DNA of 64,000 nucleotides. Origin: a virus (taxonomy: Duplodnaviria > Heunggongvirae > Uroviricota > Caudoviricetes). A program made the translations under genes and the position numbers. Below, in pieces: positions 10,748 through 63,971 of this stretch (positions are counted from its first letter, which is position 1; every line of letters starts with the position of its first letter). The stretch lies in IMG/VR virus record IMGVR_UViG_3300021354_000005, positions 13,561 through 77,560 of that record; one strand, 5' to 3'. Below the pieces are notes generated by a model. It was not told the origin of the DNA, ran no database searches, and saw nothing but the letters and a program-made list of their open reading frames with translations.

Positions 10748-13700
10748 TTATTTAAGAATAGCTGTTCCAGCAATTAATGTACAGTTTATAGGTGATGGTA
10801 ATAATGTAGCACTACCAGCTGTCAATCCACAATTTGTAGATGATACCACAACAGCACTTCCTGGTGTTAATGTACAATCAGACCCTCCACATATATAAGC
10901 ATTAGCTTGATATAGTGCACCTGTTCTTGTTGTATTATATGTAGGAGAATAAGGATTAATATCTATTTGTTGATAATGTTGATCAACTCCAACACAAACC
11001 CAATGTACATTAATATCTTGATTCACCCATTCAGGAGTAACATTTATAGCATCACCACTTAAGTTACAATTCAATATAACTGTTGTAGTGGTTGTAGTAG
11101 TTGGATTAGGAAGCTCTTGTACAGCTATTGCATGTAAGTCACATCCTTCATTCAAACCAGAATAAAATATATTGTTTTCTGCTATATAGAAGTTAGGGAT
11201 ATAGCTATGAAAACTTACCCAACTTTTTGTATTTACATTAAATGATAATGTCCAAGACTTATTACAGAAGTATTTAGGATCTGTAAGATTTACATATTGT
11301 CTAAGTGTTGTTGAACCATAAGTCTTATTTATATAAAACTTCTTAAGAGCACTATCATATTGAATAACTCCTACATAAGCTAACTGAGGAATATAATCTA
11401 ACTTGCTGATAATCACTCTATCATACTTACTATCATATACACCATGTACACCTATACCATTAAAATGATTATCTACATCTGCATTAGCATAATATCTAAG
11501 TATCTCAAATGGTAAGTGATCTGTAATAAATCTGTTCACACCAGAACCAAAGCCAGTGATATCTTCAGGAACATATTTACCATACATACTTAATGATATC
11601 AAAAATATCTGACCTCTCTTAGCATCTATTGTAATTTGTCCTTGAGGAATCTTTAATAAGAACTTATTCTGTGTACCTACATATCCAAGATTTGTTTCAG
11701 CAAAATCTACTGGAGGATTGCCAAACAATGAAGGATTACCCAAATAAGCAGCTTGAGGATTACTTGTATTCATTGTTAACAATGTATTGTATAACAATGA
11801 CTTATTCTCAAATCTAGCTAGAATAGATTTATTCTGAATACCATCTAAAGAAACTAACTTACCAAAGTTTTCTGGAAAGTCAAAGAAAGAAATAGGTGCA
11901 TAGTTTAACCAGCTATTAACTCTTGTACTAGGATTAGATGATTGTTGTTCAGAATATATAACTCTAAATGGATAGTATGTATAACAATTATCAGGTTTCC
12001 AATCTACAGGCAAATGAGAGAAATAGTTTTCTTTATTTTGCTTAGAGAACGTAACATTATATGTATATGTATTATCAAAAGCAATAGGAACAAAAGATTG
12101 TTGTAACCAGTTGTCAGGAATACCAGAGCTTACATGAGGATAGAAGTCTCCTTCTTGATTGTTAAATGCTTGACGTAAATCAGTATTGATAGAAGATTCT
12201 ACATAGAAATATGGTATACCATATGCAAATAAATAGAACTTACCATCATAATAAGCATTTGTTGTACTTACAGTTACAGTTCCAGTCAAATCTTTAGTTG
12301 TACTAGTTGTAGTTGTAGTTGTACTTCCAATTGCTGGATTATTAGGACAGTCAAAGTAATGAGCTTTAACTGATATAATATTTTTAAGACTTGTTTTACC
12401 TGCTTGATAATTACTTAAAATAGACCTAGAAGAATGCCAGTATTGTGGATAAGCCACATTACCTATTTCATCATAATATATATCACTGTCATCAGGAGCT
12501 CCCACTCTATTATCAATAAAGAAAGGAAGTTTGGTTTTTAATGCAAACTTTCCAATAAATGTATCTCCACCAAATATTGTTTCATCTGTACCTGCTGTTG
12601 TAATAAGTCTTTGGAATCCTGTATCAATAGTATTATAAGAATACATTTGTCCCCATTGATTAAGAATTATATTCTTAATAGATCCATAATAGGATACCAC
12701 CTTAATATCTTTTTGATCTTCTGGTGTAGCACAATTGCCATTTTCTGATAAAGTAAATCTTGATATATCAGAAATCTCAGATATTCCATTATTAAGAAGA
12801 TTAGGTGTTCTATTTACATATGGAAGAGGATTAGTTCCTGCTGTCTTTAAATAAACAGAAGATTCTCTTTGATAGTTATTTATTGTAAGATCATCACCAA
12901 CTGATTCTACACCAGGAATAAGATATTGATATATATCAAGTTCTCTTTGTTTAATACCTAAACCATTATCTACAGAAACACCATAATCATAACTAGCTAT
13001 AGAGTTAAATGAATATGCATAGTTTCTTCTAGTGATACCATTTATATAAAGTTGTAAATATGCTTGATAAGCAGTGAACATTGCTGTAGCATCAAGTGTA
13101 CCTGTAGTCATAGCAATATTATAGCTTGAGTTCAAAGCATCTACTTGTGCACTTTCACTTATTAGTTTATATTGAGCATTCTTTTTAACTTGTACAAAAT
13201 GGGCTTTACCAGCACCAAAAATTGCATTCTCTATCTTAAGAACATTACCTAATGTAGGCTGTCCAAAAGAAGTTTCAGGTGAATTGAATACATATCTATA
13301 TTTAGAACCATCATCAGAAAATCCATTCAAATTAGCTGGATAACATATTGTATTCTTATTATTATTATTTATTGTTACACTAGCTTTGTTTGATCCTCCT
13401 ACCACTTTAGGTAATGTAACAGAGTTTACATTTATTGGATTACCTGGATAAACATAAATATTAGTAAGTTGTTGTGTAAGAGCATCTGTATAATTAAACT
13501 CCGTGTAAGTAATATCATAACAGGTTAATACATAAGATGTACCGCTTATATTTGTAATAGTAGCTGTTCCTGTTGTTACAACAGGAAGTGTTACAGAACA
13601 TAAATTAAATATTTCATTACTAGTAAAAGTTCTCACTGCTATTTCGCCTGTATTACAATTAGTATATTGAACTGAACCAGCAATACTTGCTGATATACTA

Positions 13701-49591: not shown

Positions 49592-49857
49592 TGGCAAAGA
49601 TAAATAGATTAAATATAGCTGAGCATTTACTTGATTATCAATTAGGAATGGTTGGTAAATCTATGCAAGAAGCACATATGACAAAAGAGTGGTATAATAA
49701 ATGGACACTCACTGATGAACAACATATAGAATTTGAGAAATACGCTATTCCTCTTCTTAAAAAAGTATTTAAATTTAACACCAATAAGGCTAAAGAAACA
49801 TTTCAATGGTTTGATTTGCAATTTGGCCTTAGAATAAAAAACGAAACACATGGATAA
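49591..49857 (+). CDS. hypothetical protein (88 aa)
   Basis: ORF. Start is TAATG-coupled to the preceding micro-ORF. Confidence 0.45.
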   Translation: MAKINRLNIAEHLLDYQLGMVGKSMQEAHMTKEWYNKWTLTDEQHIEFEKYAIPLLKKVFKFNTNKAKETFQWFDLQFGLRIKNETHG

Positions 49858-50449
49858 TTCATTCTTGGCAGATCAAAGAAACAATGTTGATCATTTTAAT
49901 TATTACTATTTCAATAATGTATTTAGTAAAGAAGAGTTAGAACAGATACACAAATTTGGAAAAGCTTCAGATATACAACCTGCTTCAATTTTAGCAGACA
50001 CTGATGCTAGTAATCCATCAACAGATTTTAGAAAGAGTAAAGTGGGTTGGATTTTTGGAACATCTGAAAATAACTGGTTATATGATAAAATTTCAGGACT
50101 AGTTAAAACAGCTAACAAAAATACTAATTGGAACTTTGATATATGGGGATATGCTGATGCTTTACAATATACAATATATCATGGAGATGGTGGTCATTAC
50201 AATTGGCATGTTGATATGGGTGCAGGTGCATCTAATAGAAAGATGTCTGTTGTACTACAACTTTCTGATCCTTCTGAATATGAAGGAGGAGAATTGCAAA
50301 TAGACAAAGGTGGTAACATTGTATCAATACCAAGAGAATTAGGATTAATATGTATGTTTCCATCATTTTTATTACACAGAGTAACTCCTGTTACATCAGG
50401 AAAAAGAGTAAGTTTAGTAACATGGATGAGCGGAGCAAATTTTAGATAA
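49850..50449 (+). CDS. 2-oxoglutarate/Fe(II)-dependent oxygenase (prolyl-4-hydroxylase-like)
   Basis: HxD at WHVDMG, distal His in LLHRVTPV, and RxS 2OG-binding motif RVSLVTW. The GGELQI..GG beta-strand pattern matches the double-stranded beta-helix core. Confidence 0.65.
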   Translation: MDNSFLADQRNNVDHFNYYYFNNVFSKEELEQIHKFGKASDIQPASILADTDASNPSTDFRKSKVGWIFGTSENNWLYDKISGLVKTANKNTNWNFDIWGYADALQYTIYHGDGGHYNWHVDMGAGASNRKMSVVLQLSDPSEYEGGELQIDKGGNIVSIPRELGLICMFPSFLLHRVTPVTSGKRVSLVTWMSGANFR

Positions 50450-52355: not shown

Positions 52356-52576
52356 TGACACCGAAAGAAAAAGCAGAAGAATTATATACACATATATTTG
52401 AATGCGTTATAAATCCAGAATTAACGGTATTGGAAATGGAAGCAATGGCTATACATTGTGCATTAATAGCAGTAGATGAGATATTGAATGAATTTCCACA
52501 GGGATTTAAAGGAAATTTTGAAGAAAGGCGAAAGCAATATTGGCAAGAAGTTAAAAAAGAAATAGAAGCATTATGA
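52355..52576 (+). CDS. hypothetical small protein (73 aa)
   Basis: ORF. ATGA overlaps at both ends. Confidence 0.4.
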   Translation: MTPKEKAEELYTHIFECVINPELTVLEMEAMAIHCALIAVDEILNEFPQGFKGNFEERRKQYWQEVKKEIEAL

Positions 52577-53634
52577 GTTTTGAAGACTTAAAACGAGAAG
52601 TGCAAGCAGGTCTTGATGGTAGAAATAACGGTATACCAATGGGATTCAATAGACTAAACAAATATATAGGCATTAGAAAGTCTATGTATACATTAGTTGG
52701 TGGTCTCACTGGATCTGGTAAAACTAGCTTCATTGATGATGCATATGTACTGAATCCATTTGATTGGTATATAAGTAAGGCTAACACAACAAATATAAAG
52801 CTTACTATCATCTACAGATCTATGGAGAGAAGCAAAACATATAAGCTTGCTAAATGGGTGAGTAGAAAGATATTCTTAGACCAGGGTATAATCATTCCTG
52901 TTAACAAACTGTTGGGTTGGACTGAAAAGATGACCAAAGATGAACATGATTTGTTTCTAATGTATGAAGATTACATGGGAAGTATGAAAGAAGTGATGAC
53001 AATCATTGATGGTCCAGAGAACCCAGTGGGTATTGCTAAGGAACTGAAAGACCATGCTTTAAAGAATGGTAGAATAGAACAAGTGGACCAATACAATAAG
53101 GTTTATATTCCCAATAATGAGAATGAAATAACTATTGTTGTATTAGATCATATTGGCCTATTAAAGACTACAACAGCTCAGCCCAATAAGAAATCAGCTA
53201 TCGATAAGATGAGTGATGAGCTCAGATATGCTAGAGATATGTATGGGTATACACCTGTAGTTGTGAGTCAATTCAACCGTGATATATCTAATCCAATTAG
53301 ACAAAAGAATGGTGATGTTGAGCCACAGTTAGAGGATTTTGCTGAGAGTTCACAGACTCAGAATGATGCTGATGTAGTGTTAGGATTATTTGATCCTATG
53401 AGATATAAAATTAGTGACCCTAATTATAACTTAACTAAATTAAAGGACCAATATGGTGCTAAGTACTATAGATCCTTGAGACTAATTAAGAATAGTTATG
53501 GTGAAGATGATATAAGAGTTGGTTTAGGCTTCTTAGGTCAGATAGGTATGTTCAAGGAACTTCCTAGAAAAGATAAAATTACAGATGCTGACTATGAAGC
53601 AATTATTAATAAGACGTATTTCCTAAATAAATAA
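52573..53634 (+). CDS. replicative DNA helicase, DnaB/T7-gp4 C-terminal RecA-like domain only
   Basis: Walker A LVGGLTGSGKTSF. Walker B/H2 IVVLDHIGLL. H3 VVVSQFNRD (DnaB SQLNR). H4 SQTQNDADVVLGLF (DnaB QDAD). Confidence 0.7.
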   Translation: MSFEDLKREVQAGLDGRNNGIPMGFNRLNKYIGIRKSMYTLVGGLTGSGKTSFIDDAYVLNPFDWYISKANTTNIKLTIIYRSMERSKTYKLAKWVSRKIFLDQGIIIPVNKLLGWTEKMTKDEHDLFLMYEDYMGSMKEVMTIIDGPENPVGIAKELKDHALKNGRIEQVDQYNKVYIPNNENEITIVVLDHIGLLKTTTAQPNKKSAIDKMSDELRYARDMYGYTPVVVSQFNRDISNPIRQKNGDVEPQLEDFAESSQTQNDADVVLGLFDPMRYKISDPNYNLTKLKDQYGAKYYRSLRLIKNSYGEDDIRVGLGFLGQIGMFKELPRKDKITDADYEAIINKTYFLNK

Positions 53635-53635
53635 A

Positions 53636-53842
53636 ATGAATATAACAACAAAAGTTTACACCACTTTTCCAAATGAGAAAAGTCATTGGTGGCAAGTGGT
53701 ATTATTACCCACGGTCAGTTTGATGAATAACATCCAAAAGTTTGATCCATATGTAGCCATCAATTTTGAATGGTTATTTTGGTCATTCACAACTATAATA
53801 AGCTATGGCAAAAAACAAGCCCATCCTTACACTACGAGATAA
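53636..53842 (+). CDS. hypothetical small protein (68 aa)
   Basis: ORF filling the gap between the two helicase genes. Its 3' end overlaps the next start. Confidence 0.3.
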   Translation: MNITTKVYTTFPNEKSHWWQVVLLPTVSLMNNIQKFDPYVAINFEWLFWSFTTIISYGKKQAHPYTTR

Positions 53843-54899
53843 GAGACAACAAGAGTTTGCTCAAATATTCTTAGACCATGGAGAATTTGGTATCCTTAAT
53901 CTATGCCCTAGATTTGGTAAAATATTTACGTCCATTAATATATTAGAAAAACTGGACAAAGATATCAATATTCTAATAGCCTATCCTGATTTAAAGATTA
54001 AGGCTGCTTGGGAAGAGGATTTTAAGAAAAGGAAGTATAAGAATCAGAACATCACTTATACCACTCACTTATCTCTTAAAAAGCATACAGCTGGCTTCTA
54101 TGACCTTGTAATACTAGATGAGATACATTTACTCTCTGAAGCACAAATAGAGGCTGTAAAGGAGCTACAATGCGTCAGTGTGCTTGGTTTAACAGGTACC
54201 CTATCTAGCTGGACAGAGAAAACACTTAATAGTGAGCTTCAGTTGTCAGTGTTAGCTAGATATCCTATTGAGCAAGCTATTGATGAGGGTGTTATTACAG
54301 ACTATGAAATCACTGTGGTTAGCACAGCTCTTGATAATACAAGACTAAATGACTACAAAGGTAAACATAGAACAGAAAAGAAGCAGTTTGATAGCTATGG
54401 GTGGGTGATTGATCAACTAGAGAGACAGAATAAACCAACTATGTTCCTCAGGTTAGCTAGAATGAGAATCATTCAAAATAGTATAGCCAAGATGGAACTC
54501 ACTAGAAGGTTATTAGCTAAACATAAAGATGAACGAGTGTTAGTATTCTGTGGACTCACAAAAATAGCTGATGATTTAGGTATTCCTGTCTATCATAGTA
54601 AAGCAGGTGAGAAGGATACATTTGAAGCATTTGCTAATGGTGAGGGTAATCATCTAGCTGTTGTTAAAATAGGCAACACTGGTGTTACATACAAACCACT
54701 CAACCGTGTGATAATCAATTACTTTGATAGCAATGGTGAGAATCTAGCACAAAAGATTAACAGATGTATGGCTATGGAATACAACACACCAGATAAAAAG
54801 GCACACATATACATTGTGTCATCTACTGAAGAAGTAGAAAAGAAATGGCTTAAGAGTGCTCTTGAGTTTTTTGATAAAGATAAAATAAAATACATATGA
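53805..54899 (+). CDS. SF2-type helicase/ATPase (DEAH-like)
   Basis: Motif I-like CPRFGKIF, motif II VILDEIHLL, motif III GLTGTL. Confidence 0.5.
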   Translation: MAKNKPILTLRDKRQQEFAQIFLDHGEFGILNLCPRFGKIFTSINILEKLDKDINILIAYPDLKIKAAWEEDFKKRKYKNQNITYTTHLSLKKHTAGFYDLVILDEIHLLSEAQIEAVKELQCVSVLGLTGTLSSWTEKTLNSELQLSVLARYPIEQAIDEGVITDYEITVVSTALDNTRLNDYKGKHRTEKKQFDSYGWVIDQLERQNKPTMFLRLARMRIIQNSIAKMELTRRLLAKHKDERVLVFCGLTKIADDLGIPVYHSKAGEKDTFEAFANGEGNHLAVVKIGNTGVTYKPLNRVIINYFDSNGENLAQKINRCMAMEYNTPDKKAHIYIVSSTEEVEKKWLKSALEFFDKDKIKYI

Positions 54900-55322: not shown

Positions 55323-55535
55323 ATGAAAATAGAATTAGTAGAAGAAATCAACCCAGGCACTGGTACAATGTATGCAGTGGCAAAAGATGGTAGTGGTGTT
55401 AAATGGTTTGCTACAAAAGAATTTGCAGAAGCTTACTACAATGAGGTTTTAGCCAATCCAGACATATTAAAACCTAGAAGAAATATTTTGAAATCCGAAG
55501 AGATTGATGTACCTTTGGAGGAACAAAACAATTAA
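55323..55535 (+). CDS. hypothetical small protein (70 aa)
   Basis: ORF. Confidence 0.4.
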   Translation: MKIELVEEINPGTGTMYAVAKDGSGVKWFATKEFAEAYYNEVLANPDILKPRRNILKSEEIDVPLEEQNN

Positions 55536-55539
55536 AACT

Positions 55540-56211
55540 ATGGCAAGTAAACTCATTGGTATTGTTGGTCCTACAGGGACTGGCAAATCAACATCAATCA
55601 AACATTTAGATCCCAAAGAAACTTACATCATTAATGTAGCTAAGAAAGAGCTTCCATTTAAAGGAGCAGAAAAGCTATATAATGCTGAGAATAAGAATTA
55701 CAAGGAAATAGATGATGCAATTGAAGTGACTAGATTATTAAAGAACATTTCTGAGAAAGCACCTCACATTAAGAACATCATTATTGAAGATTCCAATTAT
55801 ATAATGGGATTCAATATTGTTTCTAAAGCTGACCAAGTTGGATTCACTAAGTTTAGCTTAATGGCTAAAGATATTGTGGAACTATTTAGAGAAGCTAGAA
55901 AATTGAGAGATGACTTAAAAGTGTTCTATTTCTCACATCCTGAAACTATTGAAGATAGTGGAGAGATTATAGGATATAAAATCAAGACAGCAGGTAAGTT
56001 AATTGACAATCAAATTGTATTAGAAGGCTTATTTACTATTTGCTTATATACAAATGTTGATGAAGCAAAAGATGGTTCTGCTACCTATGGTTTTGTAACT
56101 AATAGATATAAGAAGTATCCAGCTAAGAGTCCAGATGGAATGTTTGCAGATATAAAGATTCCAAATAACTTACAATTGGTGGTAGATACAATAGATGAGT
56201 ATTATAAATAA
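55540..56211 (+). CDS. P-loop ATPase (AAA_24/Sak4-like RecA-fold candidate)
   Basis: N-terminal Walker A IGIVGPTGTGKSTS immediately after the Met (track start 55504, trimmed to MASKLIG). Hydrophobic strand followed by IIIEDSNY (Walker B-like). ~224 aa. Confidence 0.5.
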   Translation: MASKLIGIVGPTGTGKSTSIKHLDPKETYIINVAKKELPFKGAEKLYNAENKNYKEIDDAIEVTRLLKNISEKAPHIKNIIIEDSNYIMGFNIVSKADQVGFTKFSLMAKDIVELFREARKLRDDLKVFYFSHPETIEDSGEIIGYKIKTAGKLIDNQIVLEGLFTICLYTNVDEAKDGSATYGFVTNRYKKYPAKSPDGMFADIKIPNNLQLVVDTIDEYYK

Positions 56212-56238: not shown

Positions 56239-57111
56239 ATGAGTACAATCGGTGGAAAAAAAAGAGAACAAAGTAATTTACCTGCTGACTTTACCAAAAA
56301 GGTAGGGTTATTTGAAGCAGAAGTGGTAGCAATCAATCCTGATGCTGAAGAGTATAAGGATATTTTAGGTATGGAACTTAAAGAAGATAGTAAAGCTACT
56401 GAGTATTTAGGCAAGGGTCAAAGTGGTAATAAAACACTACGTATTGACTTTTGGTTAGAAGAAGTAAAAAGTAAGGAAAAGTTCAAAGTGACATTCTTCT
56501 TAGAAGATGCTGCTAAAGAGAACAAAGATCAAACTAAGAAGCAATATATCAATGCTGTTGGTATGTGTTCTTGGGCTGATGATCCTAATAACTTAGCTAG
56601 TTGGTTTACAACTAGAGAATATCGTCCAGCATTTGTTGGTGAAGAAGATCTTTACAATTTCTTACGCACATGGTTAGGTAACCTAGACTTACGTGATGCT
56701 GAATCAACATTACAATTAGAGTGGAAAAAGCTTATGAATGGTAATGTTAAAGACCTTAAAACATTAATAGGTGGAGAATTTGCTACAAATGTAGTGGCTT
56801 TAGCTACTGTTAAGTCTGTAATCAAAGAAGATGAGACTAAACAATATCAAGCTGTATACAATAAAGCATTCTTACCTGGATATAGTTTAAAGCAATTTAG
56901 ATTGATAGACTATAACAACTCTAGTGTAGTTAATACATTAAAAGCTAAGAAGTCTAAAGATTTGAAACCTGTTGAGCGTTTTGTAATAAATGTAACAGGT
57001 GAATATGGTTGTAAAGACTATTATACATTCAAAGATCTTAGAGAATATAATGCTGATGAGAATTTAGTATCCTCTGATAGAGTGATTGCTGATGACGATA
57101 TGGATTTTTAA
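56239..57111 (+). CDS. hypothetical protein (290 aa); possible ssDNA-binding or annealing partner of the ATPase (speculative)
   Basis: ORF ending at an intrinsic terminator. No motif recognised. Confidence 0.4.
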   Translation: MSTIGGKKREQSNLPADFTKKVGLFEAEVVAINPDAEEYKDILGMELKEDSKATEYLGKGQSGNKTLRIDFWLEEVKSKEKFKVTFFLEDAAKENKDQTKKQYINAVGMCSWADDPNNLASWFTTREYRPAFVGEEDLYNFLRTWLGNLDLRDAESTLQLEWKKLMNGNVKDLKTLIGGEFATNVVALATVKSVIKEDETKQYQAVYNKAFLPGYSLKQFRLIDYNNSSVVNTLKAKKSKDLKPVERFVINVTGEYGCKDYYTFKDLREYNADENLVSSDRVIADDDMDF

Positions 57112-57175: not shown

Positions 57176-58180
57176 ATGATTAACGGTAAAAGAAAGACTA
57201 AGTTAACACCAGAAGCTATCCTTGACAAGATTAGTGAGTATGATATTTTTAAATATTATATGCCTAATCATGACTGGAAGCTTAATCAGGTGACTTATTC
57301 CCCCTTTAGAATAGAGAATAATCCTTCATTTGTTATTGGTAATAAGAGAGGATTCTTATCATTCATAGACTTTGCAGATACAAATAAGCGTGGTAATTGT
57401 TTTGATTTTGTCAGAGCATTATATAACCTACGTACATTTGATGATGTATTGAGACTAATTGATAAAGATTTTAACTTAGGTATAGTTACAGGTAAATATA
57501 CAGATGATTATAAAAGAATAACATCTGAGTATAAACAACCTGAGCTTGAGAAGCGTTATGCATTCATTCAGGTGACTACTAGGAAGTTCACAAAAGAAGA
57601 ACTTGCTTATTGGTCCACTTATTACCAGGATATACAAGACCTTAGAGATAATAACATCTATTCAATCAAAAACCTCTACTTAAACAAGTCTAAGTTTGTT
57701 CTCCCAGAGAATGAATTAAGGTTTGGCTATCTATATGAAGGACAGTATTGGAAAATATATAGACCATTTGCTGAAAAGAAACAGAAATGGATGCCCAATA
57801 ATGTTCCTATTACATGTATGGATGGTAAAGAAGATATAATTAATTGTGAGACTGCTTTTATCAATAAAAGTAAGAAGGATTATATGGTAATGAAAAAGGT
57901 ATTTCCTTGCTGCTGTGCAGTTCAGAATGAAGGTATTGGTTGCTTCTCCCATGAGAATGTGGAGTATTTAAAAGCTAACAGTGATAAACAAATCCTAAGT
58001 TTTGATAGTGATGTTACAGGTGTTACCAATTCTCAGCAGATAACTAAGTTATTTGACTTTGGTTATTGTAATGTCCCTAGGAGATATCTCAAAGAGGGAA
58101 TAAAAGATTGGGCTGATTTAGCTAAAGCTCATGGTTTACAAGCTATACAAAATCATTTAATTAACAAAAGAATTCTATAA
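57176..58180 (+). CDS. DNA primase-like protein with a degenerate DnaG-type zinc-binding domain
   Basis: YSPFRIENNPSFVIG...FADTNKRGNCFDFVRAL parallels the DnaG zinc ribbon CPFHxEKTPSFxV...YHCFGCGxxGxxIxFV with the Cys ligands mostly replaced. Sits in the replication cluster near the DnaB-like helicase. Confidence 0.45.
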   Translation: MINGKRKTKLTPEAILDKISEYDIFKYYMPNHDWKLNQVTYSPFRIENNPSFVIGNKRGFLSFIDFADTNKRGNCFDFVRALYNLRTFDDVLRLIDKDFNLGIVTGKYTDDYKRITSEYKQPELEKRYAFIQVTTRKFTKEELAYWSTYYQDIQDLRDNNIYSIKNLYLNKSKFVLPENELRFGYLYEGQYWKIYRPFAEKKQKWMPNNVPITCMDGKEDIINCETAFINKSKKDYMVMKKVFPCCCAVQNEGIGCFSHENVEYLKANSDKQILSFDSDVTGVTNSQQITKLFDFGYCNVPRRYLKEGIKDWADLAKAHGLQAIQNHLINKRIL

Positions 58181-58944
58181 TGGAAAGTCTAAAAACGTAC
58201 AATAGTACATTGGAACTTCTTACAAGTGCACCAGTTCCTGCACAAACAAGAACATATAAACCAGTTAGTCATTCATCTCTAATCGACTTAACAATGAATG
58301 GTATTGAGAAAGCAGGCTTTATATTAGGCAAAGCTAGATATTCATCAGCTAGAGATGGTCAAGTTGCTAATGGTAGATTTACTATCACTAATGTTGCTGA
58401 TAGTGAAATGGAGTTACAAATTGGCTGGCAGAATAGCTATGACAGAAGCATGAGCTTAAAGTTTGCTATTGGTACAAGAATTCTTGTATGCTCTAATGGT
58501 TGTGTATCAGGAGATTATGGTGCATTCAAAAAAAGACATAAAGGTGATATTCAAGACTTTACACCATCTGCTATTACAGACTATATAAAACAAGCAGGTG
58601 ATGCATTTAAACTTATGCAACAGCAAAGAGAAGCTATGAAACAAGTAGAAATCACTAGACGTGTAAAAGCTGAGCTTATTGGTAGAATGATGATTGAAGA
58701 ACAATTTATTAGTTCTACCCAGTTAAACATCATTAGCAAGGAATTAACTAATCCTTCTCATGATTATGGTGCTCCAGATAGCTTATGGGAGTTATATAAT
58801 TACACCACATTTGCTATGAAGGAAATACATCCCACTTTATGGATGCAAAATCATATACAAGCTCACAAATTCTTTAATGAATATAGTGAGAATGTAATTG
58901 ATGTTCAACCTGAAGAAACATTTACACAAATATCAATATTTTAA
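58180..58944 (+). CDS. DUF932-like phage/plasmid protein
   Basis: PVSHSSLIDLTMNGIEKAGF...RDGQVANGRFTITNV...LQIGWQNSYDRSMSLKFAIGTRILVCSNG follows the conserved DUF932 layout as recalled. Not searched. Confidence 0.45.
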   Translation: MESLKTYNSTLELLTSAPVPAQTRTYKPVSHSSLIDLTMNGIEKAGFILGKARYSSARDGQVANGRFTITNVADSEMELQIGWQNSYDRSMSLKFAIGTRILVCSNGCVSGDYGAFKKRHKGDIQDFTPSAITDYIKQAGDAFKLMQQQREAMKQVEITRRVKAELIGRMMIEEQFISSTQLNIISKELTNPSHDYGAPDSLWELYNYTTFAMKEIHPTLWMQNHIQAHKFFNEYSENVIDVQPEETFTQISIF

Positions 58945-58945
58945 T

Positions 58946-59665
58946 ATGAATTGGGAGAAATTTAAAGAATGCTTTCATGAGTCTTGGCATGCAAAAATGC
59001 AACCATTTATTGAAAGTGAGGCTTGTGATAACATCTATAAATATCTCAAATCTGAGAGTCAGAGGGGCAAGAAGATTGCTCCTCTCTCCCAGAATGTATA
59101 TAGATGCTTTCTAGAGACTCCATTAGATGAGTTAAAGGTGGTTATGGTAGGTATGGCTCCATATCACACATTAAGACATGGATCTCCTATAGCAGATGGT
59201 TTATTAATGAGTTGTTCTGTTACTGGTGAGCTACAACCTTCATTAACTCAATTCTACAAAGCTGTAGAACTAGAGGTGTATGATGGATTATGTGCTTATT
59301 GTAACAAAGAGAACCCAGATTTAAAATATCTGGCTCATCAAGGTGTATTGATGTTTAATGCATCTCTCACTGTTGAGATTAATAAAGCAGGCTCACATAT
59401 AGAACTATGGGAACCATTTACTAAATATGTATTTGAGGAGATATTAGCAACCACAGGAGCTCCAGTTATATTCCTGGGTAAAGATGCTGCTCAATATCAA
59501 AAGTATGTACCACCATTTACATGGTCATTTGCTACATCTCACCCAGCTAGTGCTGCATATAGAAACACACAATGGGAATCAGGAGATGTTTTCAGAATGG
59601 TAAACAAGGTACTAAAAGACAACAACAATTTTCAAATCGAATGGTTAGATGGAGCACCATTCTAA
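58946..59665 (+). CDS. family-1 uracil-DNA glycosylase homolog lacking the catalytic Asp
   Basis: LAHQGVLMFNASLTVEINKAGSHIELWEPFTKYV matches E. coli Ung [35 protein letters not shown]. His motif SHPASAAYRN retained. The water-activating motif GQDPYH reads GMAPYH. Confidence 0.7.
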   Translation: MNWEKFKECFHESWHAKMQPFIESEACDNIYKYLKSESQRGKKIAPLSQNVYRCFLETPLDELKVVMVGMAPYHTLRHGSPIADGLLMSCSVTGELQPSLTQFYKAVELEVYDGLCAYCNKENPDLKYLAHQGVLMFNASLTVEINKAGSHIELWEPFTKYVFEEILATTGAPVIFLGKDAAQYQKYVPPFTWSFATSHPASAAYRNTQWESGDVFRMVNKVLKDNNNFQIEWLDGAPF

Positions 59666-60039: not shown

Positions 60040-62397
60040 ATGATTTTAGAAAAACAAACCGAATCACACATCCTTGAAGAAGGAAGTACACAGGAAACTG
60101 TGAAAATGTCACTAGACTTAGATTCTGCACAAGTGTTGATGCAGATGTTAAGTAAGAATCTATATTCAGATTCAATAGGCTCTACTATCCGTGAATGTGC
60201 ATCTAATGCATTGGATAGTCATAGAAGAGCTGGATGTGACAAGCCTATCATTGTATCTTTCAAAAGAGCAAAGCAGGCAGATACATATGAATTTGCTGTT
60301 GAAGATTTTGGTATTGGTTTAGATGCAGATGATGTACGTAACATTATCAGTAAGTATGGTAAATCAACCAAGCGTAATAGCAATACAGAATTAGGTATGA
60401 TGGGCTTAGGTTTTAAGGCACCTTTAGCATATAGCTCTAGCTTCTATTTTGTATGTAGAAAAGATGGTATGGAGCGTAAGTATATGATGTATGAAGGAGA
60501 TGATACAAATAGTATTGATCTTCTTTATGAAACATCAACCACAGAAGCAAATGGTGTTAAGGTGATTGTACCAGTGAAGTATCACGATAGATACAATTTT
60601 ACTAATAAGATTAAGGAACAGTTAGCTTATTTTGAGAGTGTGTATTTTGATATAGATAACACAATTGGTCATACTGTAGATAATAACTTTATCATACATA
60701 GAGCTGAACATTATCAGTATTCTAGTCTTGCTAATAACAACTATATGCATTTGTGTTTAGACAATGTATCCTATCCAATTGACTGGGAGAAGCTTGGTAT
60801 TGATAGGATTAGTATGAAAATAGCTTTAAGATTTAGTCTTAGTGATGGATTATTTCCTACACCAAATAGAGAGTCTATTAGATATACACAGGAGGCTAAG
60901 CAAACTATTCTTGATAAGATAGCTATTGTAGCTAATATCTTTATGGAGAAGTTCAATGAGTCTATTACAGATAGTGCTGATATTAAGACTATTATGGAGT
61001 ATTATAGTAATAACGATAAGTCTATTAATGGTGATTTTATAGGACAATCAGGAAGACTTGATATAAACCATTTACTTAAACATGCTACAACCAGTAGTAA
61101 GCAGCCTAAATTAAAAGGTGCAGAATCATTGAACTTAAAGAGAATCGCTGAAATGTGTAAAGATTACATGTTAGCTGAGTATCAAGTTAAGTATAGATAT
61201 AATAGTAATAGATTTAATAAATCTACTAACTATTGGACTACTAACTTAAGAGTGAATGATTTTTCAAATTTTGGTTTTGGTGGTATATATCTATTTAGTG
61301 ATAGACTTAATAAAGGTAAACAAGACTATTTAAGAAGTATATTAGGAGATAATAATAATACATATTATTTTGTTAAAAAAGATAAACAATTTAAGCTTGG
61401 AGCTAAGACCGTTACAGATTGGGAAACTTACCATTCTATGTTAGATTTGAGAAACCATCCAAAGACTCAATGGAGACAAATGATTAAAGAGTTTAGATAT
61501 ATAATAGAAATGTATTCTAAAACCTTTATTGATGCAGATGCTATTGATATACCACAAGCGTTCATAGATGCCCAAAAGGCTAAAAGAATGAAGGTGTTAG
61601 TAAAACCTACCACTGTAAATGGTGTTAAGAAAGTTAGAATGAAAGGTGAGTTCTCTGGTAAAAAAGGTGAATCAACCCAAAACAACCTAACTGACCAATA
61701 TTGTAAGTTTGTCCCTAATACGTATAAAATGGAGGATATCCATAAATTAACAAAGTTACATGTATATGCTAAAGAAACTGATAAGAAGAAAATGGATAAT
61801 GCTTGGTCTTGTTTTAATAAACATGCAGCATTTATATTAGTTGCACAAGCAACCTATGACAACTTACAGAAAGCTGATTTACATAACTGGATAACAATTG
61901 ATAAATTTATGGAAGGTAAAAATAGACCATTTAAGACAGTAGCTACAGAATTTCTAATCAGCGATTTGATTGAAAAATATAGTGCTACATTTAAAAGAAT
62001 AAATACAGTTAAAGAGATATCTGCTGATTTAGCAGATAAATTACAGACATTACATGAGTATCATAATAGTCAATATAGGAGTTATGCTGATGATAACACT
62101 AAAAAAGCAGTTATAGAACATGCTATAGCAAACAATTTATTTGACCAGCCTACATATTTAGTGTACAAGCAGGTTAATGAAGTGTTTACTAAGCTAACGT
62201 TCTTAGATGCTATATTAGATACAATGCATTATAGTAATTCTAAAAAGGATTCTCCTATGATGGTAGCTATAGTTGATTTATTCAAATATCATAAACATAA
62301 AGTTAATCTAGAGCATTATAAAATAAAATTAACAGAAGATGCTCCATTAGATGAAACATTAACAGAAGAAACAATTGACGAATTACAAACAATTTAA
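60040..62397 (+). CDS. Hsp90/HtpG-like GHKL ATPase (785 aa)
   Basis: N-terminal LMQMLSKNLYSDSIGSTIRECASNALDS is similar to the Hsp90 N-terminal signature region. G1 box VEDFGIGLDADD. G2 GMMGLGFKAPLAYS. Middle-domain-like loop LSDGLFPTPNRESIRY resembles the Hsp90 catalytic-Arg loop. Confidence 0.6.
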   Translation: MILEKQTESHILEEGSTQETVKMSLDLDSAQVLMQMLSKNLYSDSIGSTIRECASNALDSHRRAGCDKPIIVSFKRAKQADTYEFAVEDFGIGLDADDVRNIISKYGKSTKRNSNTELGMMGLGFKAPLAYSSSFYFVCRKDGMERKYMMYEGDDTNSIDLLYETSTTEANGVKVIVPVKYHDRYNFTNKIKEQLAYFESVYFDIDNTIGHTVDNNFIIHRAEHYQYSSLANNNYMHLCLDNVSYPIDWEKLGIDRISMKIALRFSLSDGLFPTPNRESIRYTQEAKQTILDKIAIVANIFMEKFNESITDSADIKTIMEYYSNNDKSINGDFIGQSGRLDINHLLKHATTSSKQPKLKGAESLNLKRIAEMCKDYMLAEYQVKYRYNSNRFNKSTNYWTTNLRVNDFSNFGFGGIYLFSDRLNKGKQDYLRSILGDNNNTYYFVKKDKQFKLGAKTVTDWETYHSMLDLRNHPKTQWRQMIKEFRYIIEMYSKTFIDADAIDIPQAFIDAQKAKRMKVLVKPTTVNGVKKVRMKGEFSGKKGESTQNNLTDQYCKFVPNTYKMEDIHKLTKLHVYAKETDKKKMDNAWSCFNKHAAFILVAQATYDNLQKADLHNWITIDKFMEGKNRPFKTVATEFLISDLIEKYSATFKRINTVKEISADLADKLQTLHEYHNSQYRSYADDNTKKAVIEHAIANNLFDQPTYLVYKQVNEVFTKLTFLDAILDTMHYSNSKKDSPMMVAIVDLFKYHKHKVNLEHYKIKLTEDAPLDETLTEETIDELQTI

Positions 62398-62408: not shown

Positions 62409-63971
62409 ATGGGATTATTTAGCCTAAGCTGGTTCAAGAGCCAGAAAGAAAAACAAATTGAAGATTTACGACATGACATTAGAGTTAAAGAATTAGAAAA
62501 AGCATTAGAAAGAATAGATGCTAAACCAGTAGATACTTTTCAAACTGGTTATAATCCTTTTACTGCTGCAACATGGACACCTGCACCAAATTTTAGTACT
62601 GCTGCAGGAGAATATACACCAATCTCTAAGCCATATACAAATATAAAGATGGTGAATGATACATTGACTATTGTATTATTAGATGGTTCTATCATTACTA
62701 AGTCTCCTGCAACTGCAGGGGATTTTAATACTGCTAGAGACTGTAGAACAGAATCTTGTTTATTAAATCTTGTAAGCACACAGGAAGTTAAGGATCAGAG
62801 AAGAAAGGCTGAAGCAGAATATGAGAAGGTAAAAGCTGTAGCAAGAGGTGCTGAGCATTTAGCTACATTAGATGAGTTTGAAATGAAACATGGTAGTTTG
62901 TATCTAAAGGGTATCAACAGAAGCATTCCACCATTAATGGTAGAGGAATTCTTAGAAATTGTTGGTACCAGAGGTGGTACAGATAATGACCAGTTTCAAG
63001 CTTTACACAGATTTTTTATGTGGTGTTGCTTGAATCCTAGAGCTGAGGTAGCTGATAAGTTATATAACTTCTTACAGAAGAATAGCTTTAAGATTACTAA
63101 GCAGGGGTTCTTTGTAGCTCTTCGTAATGTGGTTACACTCCATGGATCTACAGAACTAGTACAATTCATCAGCAATGCTTACAACAAGGTGAAGGCTGTA
63201 TGGAAGAAAAGCCCAGCTGATTACACTGTATTCCTAGAGAATGGTGAGTATAGAATGGTTCATAAAGACTGGTTATTCAAAGTTGAAAAATGTACATGTG
63301 AATATTGTGATGGTACAGGATCTATTCCTGAAGGTGATTATGGTGATGGATGGGAAGATAGTTGTGAGTGTCCAGAGTGTGATGGTGAAGGTATGTATGA
63401 GCACACTGTTAAAATTGAAAATGGTGAAGAGATTGGTGGTTTAACAGATTTATATCTTGATCTTCCTAATAGAGCAGAGAATAGATTTACAGATGCTCAT
63501 ACAAAGACATTTGATATCAGAATTGGTAGACCAGTAAGTATGCCTATGGAGAAATGCAGATGGAATACTGATGATTGTGGTGCTGAAGGTTTACACTTTA
63601 CTAGTGATGAGATTCATTATGTAGGTTGTGGTGATACGAGCGTTCTCGTACTTATTAATCCAATGAAGGTTGTAGGTATTGGTGAGTCTAAGGGTAGATG
63701 TTATGAGTATTTACCAATTATGACTGTTCCTACTGATGAAGCAACAGACATTTTACATGATTTAGACTTTGATACATTAGAGTTGGATGAGTCTTATGCT
63801 GTGCGTGAATTAGAAAACTTGGCTGAGAAAGCTAAAGAAGGATTCACAGCTGAAGCTAAGAAGTATGATTTTAATCTTCCTGCTTTATCTGCTGTAGAAG
63901 TGTATACAATTGTGAAATCTTTAGATGAAATTAAGCAAGAAATATCTAAAAGAATCGTAACAATTGATTAA
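62409..63971 (+). CDS. protein with DnaJ-type CxxCxGxG zinc fingers (520 aa), no J domain
   Basis: CTCEYCDGTGS and CECPECDGEGM (two CxxCxGxG units) in the C-terminal half. N-terminal coiled coil. No HPD motif. Confidence 0.5.
   Translation: MGLFSLSWFKSQKEKQIEDLRHDIRVKELEKALERIDAKPVDTFQTGYNPFTAATWTPAPNFSTAAGEYTPISKPYTNIKMVNDTLTIVLLDGSIITKSPATAGDFNTARDCRTESCLLNLVSTQEVKDQRRKAEAEYEKVKAVARGAEHLATLDEFEMKHGSLYLKGINRSIPPLMVEEFLEIVGTRGGTDNDQFQALHRFFMWCCLNPRAEVADKLYNFLQKNSFKITKQGFFVALRNVVTLHGSTELVQFISNAYNKVKAVWKKSPADYTVFLENGEYRMVHKDWLFKVEKCTCEYCDGTGSIPEGDYGDGWEDSCECPECDGEGMYEHTVKIENGEEIGGLTDLYLDLPNRAENRFTDAHTKTFDIRIGRPVSMPMEKCRWNTDDCGAEGLHFTSDEIHYVGCGDTSVLVLINPMKVVGIGESKGRCYEYLPIMTVPTDEATDILHDLDFDTLELDESYAVRELENLAEKAKEGFTAEAKKYDFNLPALSAVEVYTIVKSLDEIKQEISKRIVTID

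Follow-up and report, generated by a model that had tools for sequence, protein, structure and literature searches.

A uracil-DNA glycosylase-like protein lacking the motif A aspartate is conserved in the replication module of crAss-related phages

The DNA analysed here, referred to as the window, is a stretch of 64,000 nucleotides (nt) of a caudoviricete virus record (IMG/VR IMGVR_UViG_3300021354_000005, positions 13,561 to 77,560), and belongs to a 116,167-bp metagenomic contig with a two-arm layout as in crAss-like phages. The nearest relatives of its large terminase are those of Leptolyngbya phage Lbo-JY46 (39%) and of Cellulophaga phages phi17:2 and phi4:1 (31%), and no near-identical DNA was found among GenBank phages. 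The gene under study encodes a protein resembling uracil-DNA glycosylase (UDG) and lies within a co-directional, tightly packed replication module that extends from a DNA polymerase through an rIIB-like gene. Its open reading frame (ORF) is on the plus strand, with an ATG start at 58946 and a TAA stop at 59663-59665. An alternative TTG start at 58898 would make the ORF longer and cause it to overlap the upstream gene, and 58946 was taken as the real start because every homologue begins with MNWEKFK. A cluster 97% identical to the protein holds 29 members, and the identical protein was found in two independent assemblies (ENA ERZ27300129 and Logan SRR7053525), by which a sequencing or assembly error was ruled out as the source of its unusual motif, GMAPYH.

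The UDG-like protein matched the Pfam UDG model PF03167 with an E value of 4.7e-7 (30.4 bits, cut-off 24.3). A phmmer search against the PDB returned 48 distinct chains. Each of them bears the name uracil-DNA glycosylase; the top match has an E value of 1.4e-16 and spans residues 10-235, and E. coli Ung has one of about 5e-14. The bacterial, human, herpesvirus, mimivirus and poxvirus enzymes recognised among these matches are all of family 1. BLASTP against E. coli Ung gave 33% identity over 177 amino acids (aa) with an E value of 8e-20. Using the AlphaFold model of the protein (predicted local distance difference test, pLDDT, 87; predicted template modelling score, pTM, 0.87) as a Foldseek query, the 50 best matches were all family-1 UNG structures, with template modelling (TM) scores of 0.70-0.75 and E values of about 1e-12. 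All five NCBIfam Ung equivalog models matched end to end (E 5e-35 to 1e-23), and all of them below their curated cut-offs, for instance with 121.4 against 162 for NF003592 and 101.6 against 185.75 for TIGR00628; the UDG of phage FpV4 exceeds two of these models and that of phage cr111_1 falls just under. As to the UDGs of family 4 and family 5 (UDGb), which are marked by a motif A of GLAPA or GE(A/G)PG and a 4Fe-4S cluster, the only likeness is the Ala at the Asp position; all NCBIfam matches are Ung models. The protein is a family-1 UNG homologue that fails both the family-defining motif A and the curated equivalog thresholds, and it should be named UDG-like rather than uracil-DNA glycosylase.

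Asp64 of Ung has two tasks, stabilising the oxocarbenium-like transition state and positioning the water; the uracil anion is stabilised by His187. Both residues are essential for catalysis (PMC5449639). Motif A, as defined for the UDG families (PMC5538708, PMC1936997, PMC5449639), was found with V-G-M-A-P-Y-H opposite L-G-Q-D-P-Y-H in every alignment, namely those of HMMER to PDB chains, BLASTP and MAFFT. This register places Ala71 (GCT, 59156-59158) at Asp64 and Met70 at Gln63 of Ung, with no acid at either position. It is anchored by the flanking Pro-Tyr, which is nearly invariant across the family, and it is independent of the E. coli and human Ung sequences used in our own alignments, because the HMMER alignments to PDB chains show the same pairing. 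The first-pass annotation had described a family-1 UDG-fold protein with the catalytic Gln-Asp replaced by Met-Ala, and this description was borne out by all alignments as well as by the Pfam, PDB and fold matches; no realignment put an Asp at the catalytic position.

The phage protein shares several landmarks with E. coli-type Ung: Pro-Tyr in motif A and His-Pro in motif B, the Asn that confers uracil specificity and, in the loops, the Pro-Ser of the Pro-rich and the Gly of the Gly-Ser loop. Tyr73, the equivalent of Ung Tyr66, is Tyr in 135 of 138 representatives. Asn138 is found in the context QGVLMFN, and a GSH is also present. His199 and Pro200 correspond to Ung His187 and Pro188, positions that are His in 118 of 135 and Pro in 130 of 134 representatives, and Asn138 and His199-Pro200 were invariant both in an alignment of 61 close relatives and in one of 80 diverse members. 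The Pro-rich loop reads Q97-P98-S99, with Pro98-Ser99 kept and the loop invariant in the close clade, and the Gly-Ser loop is G178-K179, with Gly178 kept. The differences, apart from Met-Ala for Gln-Asp and a 4-residue insertion after motif A, are Met88 for the stacking Phe (at this position 77 of the 138 representatives have F, 28 M and 28 L), Lys179 for the Ser and Ala203 for the wedge Leu191; the last three replacements had escaped the first-pass annotation. By analogy with the Arg of vaccinia D4, Tyr205 or Arg206 might act as a replacement wedge (PMC1936997). The position of Ung His73 is Asp in 104 of 138 subfamily members (Asp84 in the window protein) and that of Ung Val79 is Cys in 96. 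Asp84 was considered as a specific compensation and rejected, as it occurs family-wide and is not among the columns most associated with the Asp64 status.

A word-indexed search returned 1,191 homologues, and the best 120 of them, 66-97% identical to the window protein, were used for the close-clade counts. None of the 120 carries the Asp: the motif is GMCPYH in 95, GMAPYH in 19 and GFCPYH in 6, that is, Cys in 101 and Ala in 19. The alignment of the 61 close relatives, covering the same range of identity, contains 69 invariant columns, including G69, P72, Y73, H74, the Q-P-S-L loop, N138, G178-K179 and H199-P200-A201. The only variable positions of motif A are 70 (M/F) and 71 (C/A), which are the Gln-Asp in Ung. 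In a neighbour-joining (NJ) tree the clade was monophyletic, with Cys inferred as the ancestral state and about five changes between Cys and Ala, each of which takes two nucleotide substitutions (TGY to GCN). These swaps occurred with the G, P, Y and H invariant, so the side chain that replaced the Asp is not by itself essential. Intact orthologues, with ORFs of 233-239 aa, were found in 20 IMG/VR loci, and the ratio of non-synonymous to synonymous substitution rates (dN/dS) was 0.05-0.23 in unsaturated pairs (Nei-Gojobori, NG86), which demonstrated that the UDG-like gene is under purifying selection.

To the first-pass annotation this was a single odd protein. It belongs instead to a large phage subfamily in which the Asp is gone in about half of the 50%-identity clusters, having been lost many times independently. 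When 1.84 billion cluster representatives were searched exhaustively with HMMER, 6,271 matches were obtained, 132 of them at E ≤1e-30, and residues were counted in the 135 full-length sequences among the best 150 matches, taken as 50%-identity clusters. Asp64 is present in 61 clusters, and 60 of these keep the Tyr66, Asn123 and His187 of Ung; Glu64 is present in 15 clusters, with the three residues kept in 11; an acid at position 63 only is found in 11 clusters, with the three kept in 3; and 48 clusters have no acid at 63 or 64, with the three kept in 39. The residue at position 64 of the 48 acid-free clusters is Ser in 17, Cys in 16, Ala in 4, Asn in 3, Gly in 3, Thr in 2, Pro in 2 and Lys in 1. 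The group with an acid at 63 only is more eroded, His187 being gone in 8 of its 11 clusters and Ser88 in every one, and yet it persists. Across the 80 diverse members the invariant columns were P46, Y73, G85, L100, N138, W155, G178, H199 and P200.

The number of switches between Asp and non-Asp states was 19 on an NJ tree built without the motif A columns and 18-26 over 25 bootstraps, compared with about 45 for shuffled states; a second such count came out similar. Many independent changes are needed under any topology, and catalysis, as read from these residues, appears to have been repeatedly dispensable in the subfamily. The column of Ung His67 covaries most with the Asp state: Pro occupies it in 43 of the 62 Asp forms and His in 14 of the 16 Cys forms, 8 of 16 Ser forms and 3 of 5 Ala forms, and Glu forms have Ala or Ser. 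This covariation may reflect either shared ancestry or compensation. A mutual-information scan found no new conserved acidic residue specific to the Asp-less forms. Proteins of the subfamily are named uracil-DNA glycosylase by JGI and GenBank; no relative was found among 185,579 representative bacterial and archaeal genomes (GTDB), and literature searches found no description of Asp-less or pseudo-enzyme phage UDGs.

The gene occupies a fixed slot in the module (Table 1), with the order DnaB, SNF2, Sak4, p290, primase, (DUF932), UDG-like and rIIA/rIIB shared alike by Ala, Cys and Asp forms. All 20 IMG/VR relatives keep the DnaB-to-rIIB order, as far as each locus reaches, and every related locus has the primase on the upstream side of the UDG-like gene. 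More distantly, a 49%-identical Cys-type locus (L029) shows most of the module order and a 48%-identical Asp-type locus (L030) the primase-proximal part, and the Asp-type gene comes directly after the primase in FpV4 and a few genes downstream of it in crAss001-like phages. Around the homologues P0126 and P0133 the contigs are short and show little of the neighbourhood. Because Asp and non-Asp forms occupy the same slot, they are positional orthologues. DUF932 stands between the primase and the UDG-like gene in relatives with ≥65% identity; it was not detected by phmmer in loci L024-L031, where other short ORFs occupy the gap. In the window and locus L003 only one UDG-like ORF was found, with no second, canonical UDG.

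Table 1. Genes of the replication module and landmark residues of the UDG-like protein (window coordinates)
Feature	Position	Strand	Evidence or remark
DNA polymerase, 650 aa	47284-49236	+	phrog_1252, E 2e-142
2-oxoglutarate (2OG)-Fe(II) oxygenase	49850-50449	+	PF13640, E 1.4e-16; phrog_61 type
DnaB-like helicase	52573-53634	+	PF03796
SNF2/DEAD helicase	53805-54899	+	ResIII/Helicase_C
RNA polymerase alpha-subunit C-terminal domain (alpha-CTD) ORF, 137 aa	54896-55309	+	PF03118, E 1.4e-22
Sak4-like ATPase	55504-56211	+	AAA_24
Conserved 290-aa protein (p290)	56239-57111	+	phrog_2872 among module evidence
DNA primase, Toprim-like	57176..58180	+	phrog_12622, E 5e-31; weak Toprim_2 match
DUF932 protein	58180..58944	+	PF06067, E 9.6e-11; stop 1 nt before the UDG-like ATG
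UDG-like gene	58946..59665	+	intact ORF, 239 aa; full-length family-1 UNG fold without the catalytic Asp
Motif A, GGT ATG GCT CCA TAT CAC (G69 M70 A71 P72 Y73 H74)	59150..59167	+	matches Ung 62-GQDPYH-67
Met88	59207..59209	+	at Ung Phe77, which stacks on uracil; MAFFT alignment
Asn138	59357..59359	+	counterpart of Ung Asn123, the reader of the uracil Watson-Crick face; N in 130/138 representatives
Motif B, HPASAAY	59540..59560	+	opposite Ung 187-HPSPLSA-193; His199-Pro200 kept, Leu wedge replaced by Ala203
Small conserved protein, ~119 aa	59676..60035	+	readable from 59649; in homologues the second Met is the start
rIIA-like gene, GHKL ATPase fold	60040-62397	+	phrog_612, E 4e-62; HATPase_c
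rIIB-like gene	62409-63971	+	phrog_609

Among the closest known phage proteins are the UDGs of cr111_1, DAC17, PhiCrAssBcn9, FpV4, bajarodcaudo virus 1 and Dulem virus 41, which belong to the same subfamily at about 30% identity; no GenBank phage record was more than 33% identical to the window protein. These UDGs of cultured and reference crAss-like and Flavobacterium phages share the motif B HPA(S/Y)xA(Y/R) and are likewise encoded among the replication genes, together with the primase or close to it, but all six of the GenBank phage UDGs of the subfamily that were checked have GQDPYP with Asp, in contrast to the Cys or Ala of the window clade. The crAss literature lists the UDG simply as a nucleotide-metabolism enzyme (PMC7886860). 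The cultured crAss-like Cellulophaga phage phi14:2 carries a 28%-identical protein annotated as uracil-DNA glycosylase, g042 (NC_021806, 27660-28370; L033, 280-990), with non-canonical catalytic residues: its GKEPYR has Glu where Ung has Asp, and its EDPIQAV, standing where Ung has HPSPLSA, has Asp for the catalytic His, so that both catalytic residues of Ung are changed. It is the nearest cultured phage found to encode a non-canonical UDG.

Viral UDGs with roles other than excision have a precedent, and three earlier cases support the function proposed here. In vaccinia virus the UNG protein is required for replication and its catalytic site is not, and poxvirus D4 together with A20 forms the polymerase processivity factor (PMC2630940, PMC1936997). 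The phage protein differs from D4 and its mpox counterpart E4 in that D4 keeps Asp68 and is an active glycosylase with A20 and a B-family polymerase as partners, whereas the phage polymerase is of another type (phrog_1252). Human UNG D145N/H268N, an engineered protein, binds uracil-DNA specifically and tightly without cutting (PMC4756853). It shares with the phage protein an UNG fold without the catalytic Asp; it is man-made, has also lost the His and carries Asn, in contrast to the naturally occurring phage protein with its His intact and an Ala. In some phage fusions of an A-family polymerase with a UDG, the template is scanned by the UDG before it reaches the active site (bioRxiv 10.1101/2025.03.26.645540). 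A further comparison is given by UDG families 2 (MUG/TDG, GINPG), 3 (SMUG1, GMNPG) and 5 (UDGb, GLAPA), which excise without the Asp (PMC5449639). They have in common with the phage protein the absence of the motif A Asp, and GMAPY resembles GMNPG and GLAPA, but these families are separate by overall sequence and family 5 has an Fe-S cluster.

Judged from its residues, the UDG-like protein probably binds DNA without cutting it. The reading that we favour, and hold with about even confidence, is that it is a non-cleaving or very slowly cleaving binder of uracil- or abasic-site DNA that would act with the phage replisome, in analogy to poxvirus D4. It would be an UNG-derived DNA-binding protein with the uracil pocket and the backbone-gripping loops kept, and it has lost the carboxylate by which Ung steadies the sugar cation and activates the water for attack, so that excision would be abolished or strongly reduced. 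The protein may bind or scan uracil- or abasic-site DNA alongside the phage replication machinery, with the replisome as its putative partner, and what selection maintains would then be the binding of DNA or the assembly of the replisome, not the excision of bases. This reading is suggested because the Asp is labile and the pocket and loops invariant, because the gene is under purifying selection in a primase-adjacent slot, and because some lineages have eroded further; a structural role in particular is argued from the persistence of the eroded lineages, in which His187 and Ser88 are lost, or GKEPYR is found as in phi14:2. The first-pass annotation had proposed a reader of uracil or of a modified base. 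A uracil binder fits the fixed Asp loss, the selection and the conserved pocket and loops, but a reader of modified bases is unlikely. The motif A Tyr of Ung excludes 5-substituted pyrimidines, and since this residue is retained as Tyr73, nearly throughout the subfamily, a base with a 5-substituent would be a less probable ligand than uracil or an abasic site.

Several observations weigh against this interpretation. The Ung D64N mutant retains ~0.01-0.1% of wild-type activity, which could matter over a phage cycle, and residual or alternative catalysis is possible because His187 and Asn123 are strictly kept. The pocket is conserved more strictly than a purely structural role would require. The NJ trees are rough and may overcount the switches, so that the counts are possibly inflated. 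The suggested association with the replisome comes solely from gene neighbourhood; no A20-like bridging partner was recognisable, the adjacent 119-aa protein being a generic SH3-like barrel. Finally, UDG families 2, 3 and 5 excise without the Asp (PMC5449639), and activity may thus be retained in the phage protein too, its loss not being deducible from sequence by itself.

This last point leads to the strongest alternative, which we consider unlikely though serious, namely that the protein is a slow, Asp-independent uracil-DNA glycosylase driven by the leaving group, probably product-bound and sufficient to clean phage DNA. In such a mechanism activation of the uracil would fall to His199 and Asn138, and the cation would owe its stability to the DNA phosphates, as in MUG/TDG, SMUG1 or the family-5 UDGb. 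The invariance of the pocket and of the motif B His-Pro is what such an enzyme would show, the GMAPY motif can be read as a hybrid of the family-3 GMNPG and the family-5 GLAPA, both from active enzymes (PMC5449639), the Glu of 15 clusters is a conservative replacement, and the His that Cys, Ser and Ala forms retain as the counterpart of Ung His67, where 43 of 62 Asp forms have Pro, could be a compensation. However, the swaps to Cys, Ala, Ser, Gly, Pro and Lys, together with the erosion of His187 and Ser88, look like lost rather than re-engineered catalysis, the mutual-information scan gave no new conserved acid in Asp-less forms, and the UDG-like protein lies under all Ung equivalog cut-offs.

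Less probable again is a free-standing shield, a dominant-negative Ung that would cover uracil and abasic sites, especially in single-stranded intermediates, against host Ung and apurinic/apyrimidinic (AP) endonucleases. Ugi and p56 are inhibitors of Ung, and the shield would be their DNA-side equivalent. The protein has features of the engineered non-cutting uracil sensor (PMC4756853), and even phi29, which has no uracil DNA, must block host UNG, its single-stranded intermediates being vulnerable (PMC8150378). Within the close clade (best 120) the Asp was never seen, though it would take a single change from GCT to GAT. A phmmer search with the Dut of cr111_1 found no dUTPase in the window and the 5.7 kb downstream of it (L003), so incorporation of uracil could be appreciable, but this search used one query and covered ~70 kb of the 116-kb genome; domains of nucleotide metabolism in 10 further ORFs were those of ribonucleotide reductase only. 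Against the shield, stoichiometric masking would be costly, and the Asp-type orthologues in the same slot excise, which is the opposite action.

Very improbable is a covalent mechanism, in which the ancestral Cys forms, and Ser forms, would be traps whose thiol, beside His74 and where the attacking water would be, captures the sugar after loss of the base, the Ala form of the window being derived and non-covalent. Covalent capture has parallels in the His of UdgX and the Cys of HMCES. Cys is the commonest residue of the clade (101 of 121) and its inferred ancestor, and it goes with a His three residues later in 14 of 16 clusters; UdgX is a precedent for a UDG-superfamily protein in a tight uracil-DNA complex (PMC4787834). 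Yet the Cys is not essential, having changed to Ala about five times with the motif otherwise unchanged and purifying selection continuing, the window protein itself carries Ala, and the idea is pure conjecture. That the gene is a decaying or functionless UDG remnant, as the lost catalytic residue, the weak Pfam score and the scores below the NCBIfam cut-offs might indicate, is effectively refuted, and a pseudogene excluded, by the dN/dS of 0.05-0.23, the ORFs intact in all relatives and in hundreds of clusters, the fixed synteny and the 69 invariant columns across 61 sequences of 66-97% identity.

Returning to the binder associated with the replisome, the repeated and selected loss of the Asp, the kept pocket and the primase-adjacent place suggest an excision-free role of phage UDGs in replication, like that of poxvirus D4, which would make them a new component to be sought in the replisomes of crAss-like phages. 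A bolder form of it, which we consider unlikely, is that a widespread lineage of crAss-related environmental phages has repeatedly, about 20 times, turned a repair enzyme into a natural reader of uracil and abasic sites that travels with the replisome. By analogy with the uracil pocket of archaeal B-family polymerases, such a reader might be a read-ahead sensor of template uracil, and its Cys forms might be covalent traps of the UdgX or HMCES kind. If this were true, about half of the subfamily proteins annotated as uracil-DNA glycosylase would not be glycosylases. The name uracil-DNA glycosylase is probably wrong or at least unproven for about half of the phage subfamily. Natural, stable, non-cutting binders of uracil-DNA could serve as sensors of uracil and abasic sites, like the engineered UNG double mutant, and a single scaffold that carries Asp, Glu, Asn, Ser, Cys, Ala or Gly, with a covarying His or Pro three positions on, provides a natural mutagenesis set for the mechanism of UNG.

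As to the other genes of the module, the phrog_1252-type polymerase had no Pfam match at E ≤0.01 and is of a family that Pfam does not yet capture. The 2OG-Fe(II) oxygenase, to which the first-pass annotation had drawn attention, is indeed encoded on the same arm, but a link to the UDG-like protein found no support: it had a phmmer match in no related locus spanning the interval between polymerase and DnaB, and was rejected as a partner and regarded as an accessory gene. In the 78%-identical locus L001 this interval holds a thioredoxin and an SPL-domain gene instead, and the place of the alpha-CTD ORF, which had no phmmer match in any related locus, is taken by an ORF of 70 aa only. The 119-aa protein downstream of the UDG-like gene has 196 homologues, mostly of 119 aa and confined to this phage group; it belongs to no Pfam, PHROG or NCBIfam family and phmmer found none in L024-L028, and its confident model combines an SH3-like beta-barrel with helices, without a specific structural match. 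A scan for promoters and terminators gave fewer promoter-like sites than in shuffled sequences and no plus-strand terminator from primase to rIIA. The rIIA/rIIB-like pair directly follows the replication genes and keeps its synteny with the UDG-like gene throughout the close relatives.

Three members of the subfamily carry additional domains. P0135, of 385 aa, has a Ser-type UDG-like domain (GLSPYH) combined with a NADAR domain (PF08719, E 1.3e-14), P0139 a GIY-YIG nuclease domain and a Cys-type UDG-like domain, and P0258 two tandem UDG domains having GQDPAP. All three are candidate fusions or merged gene calls.

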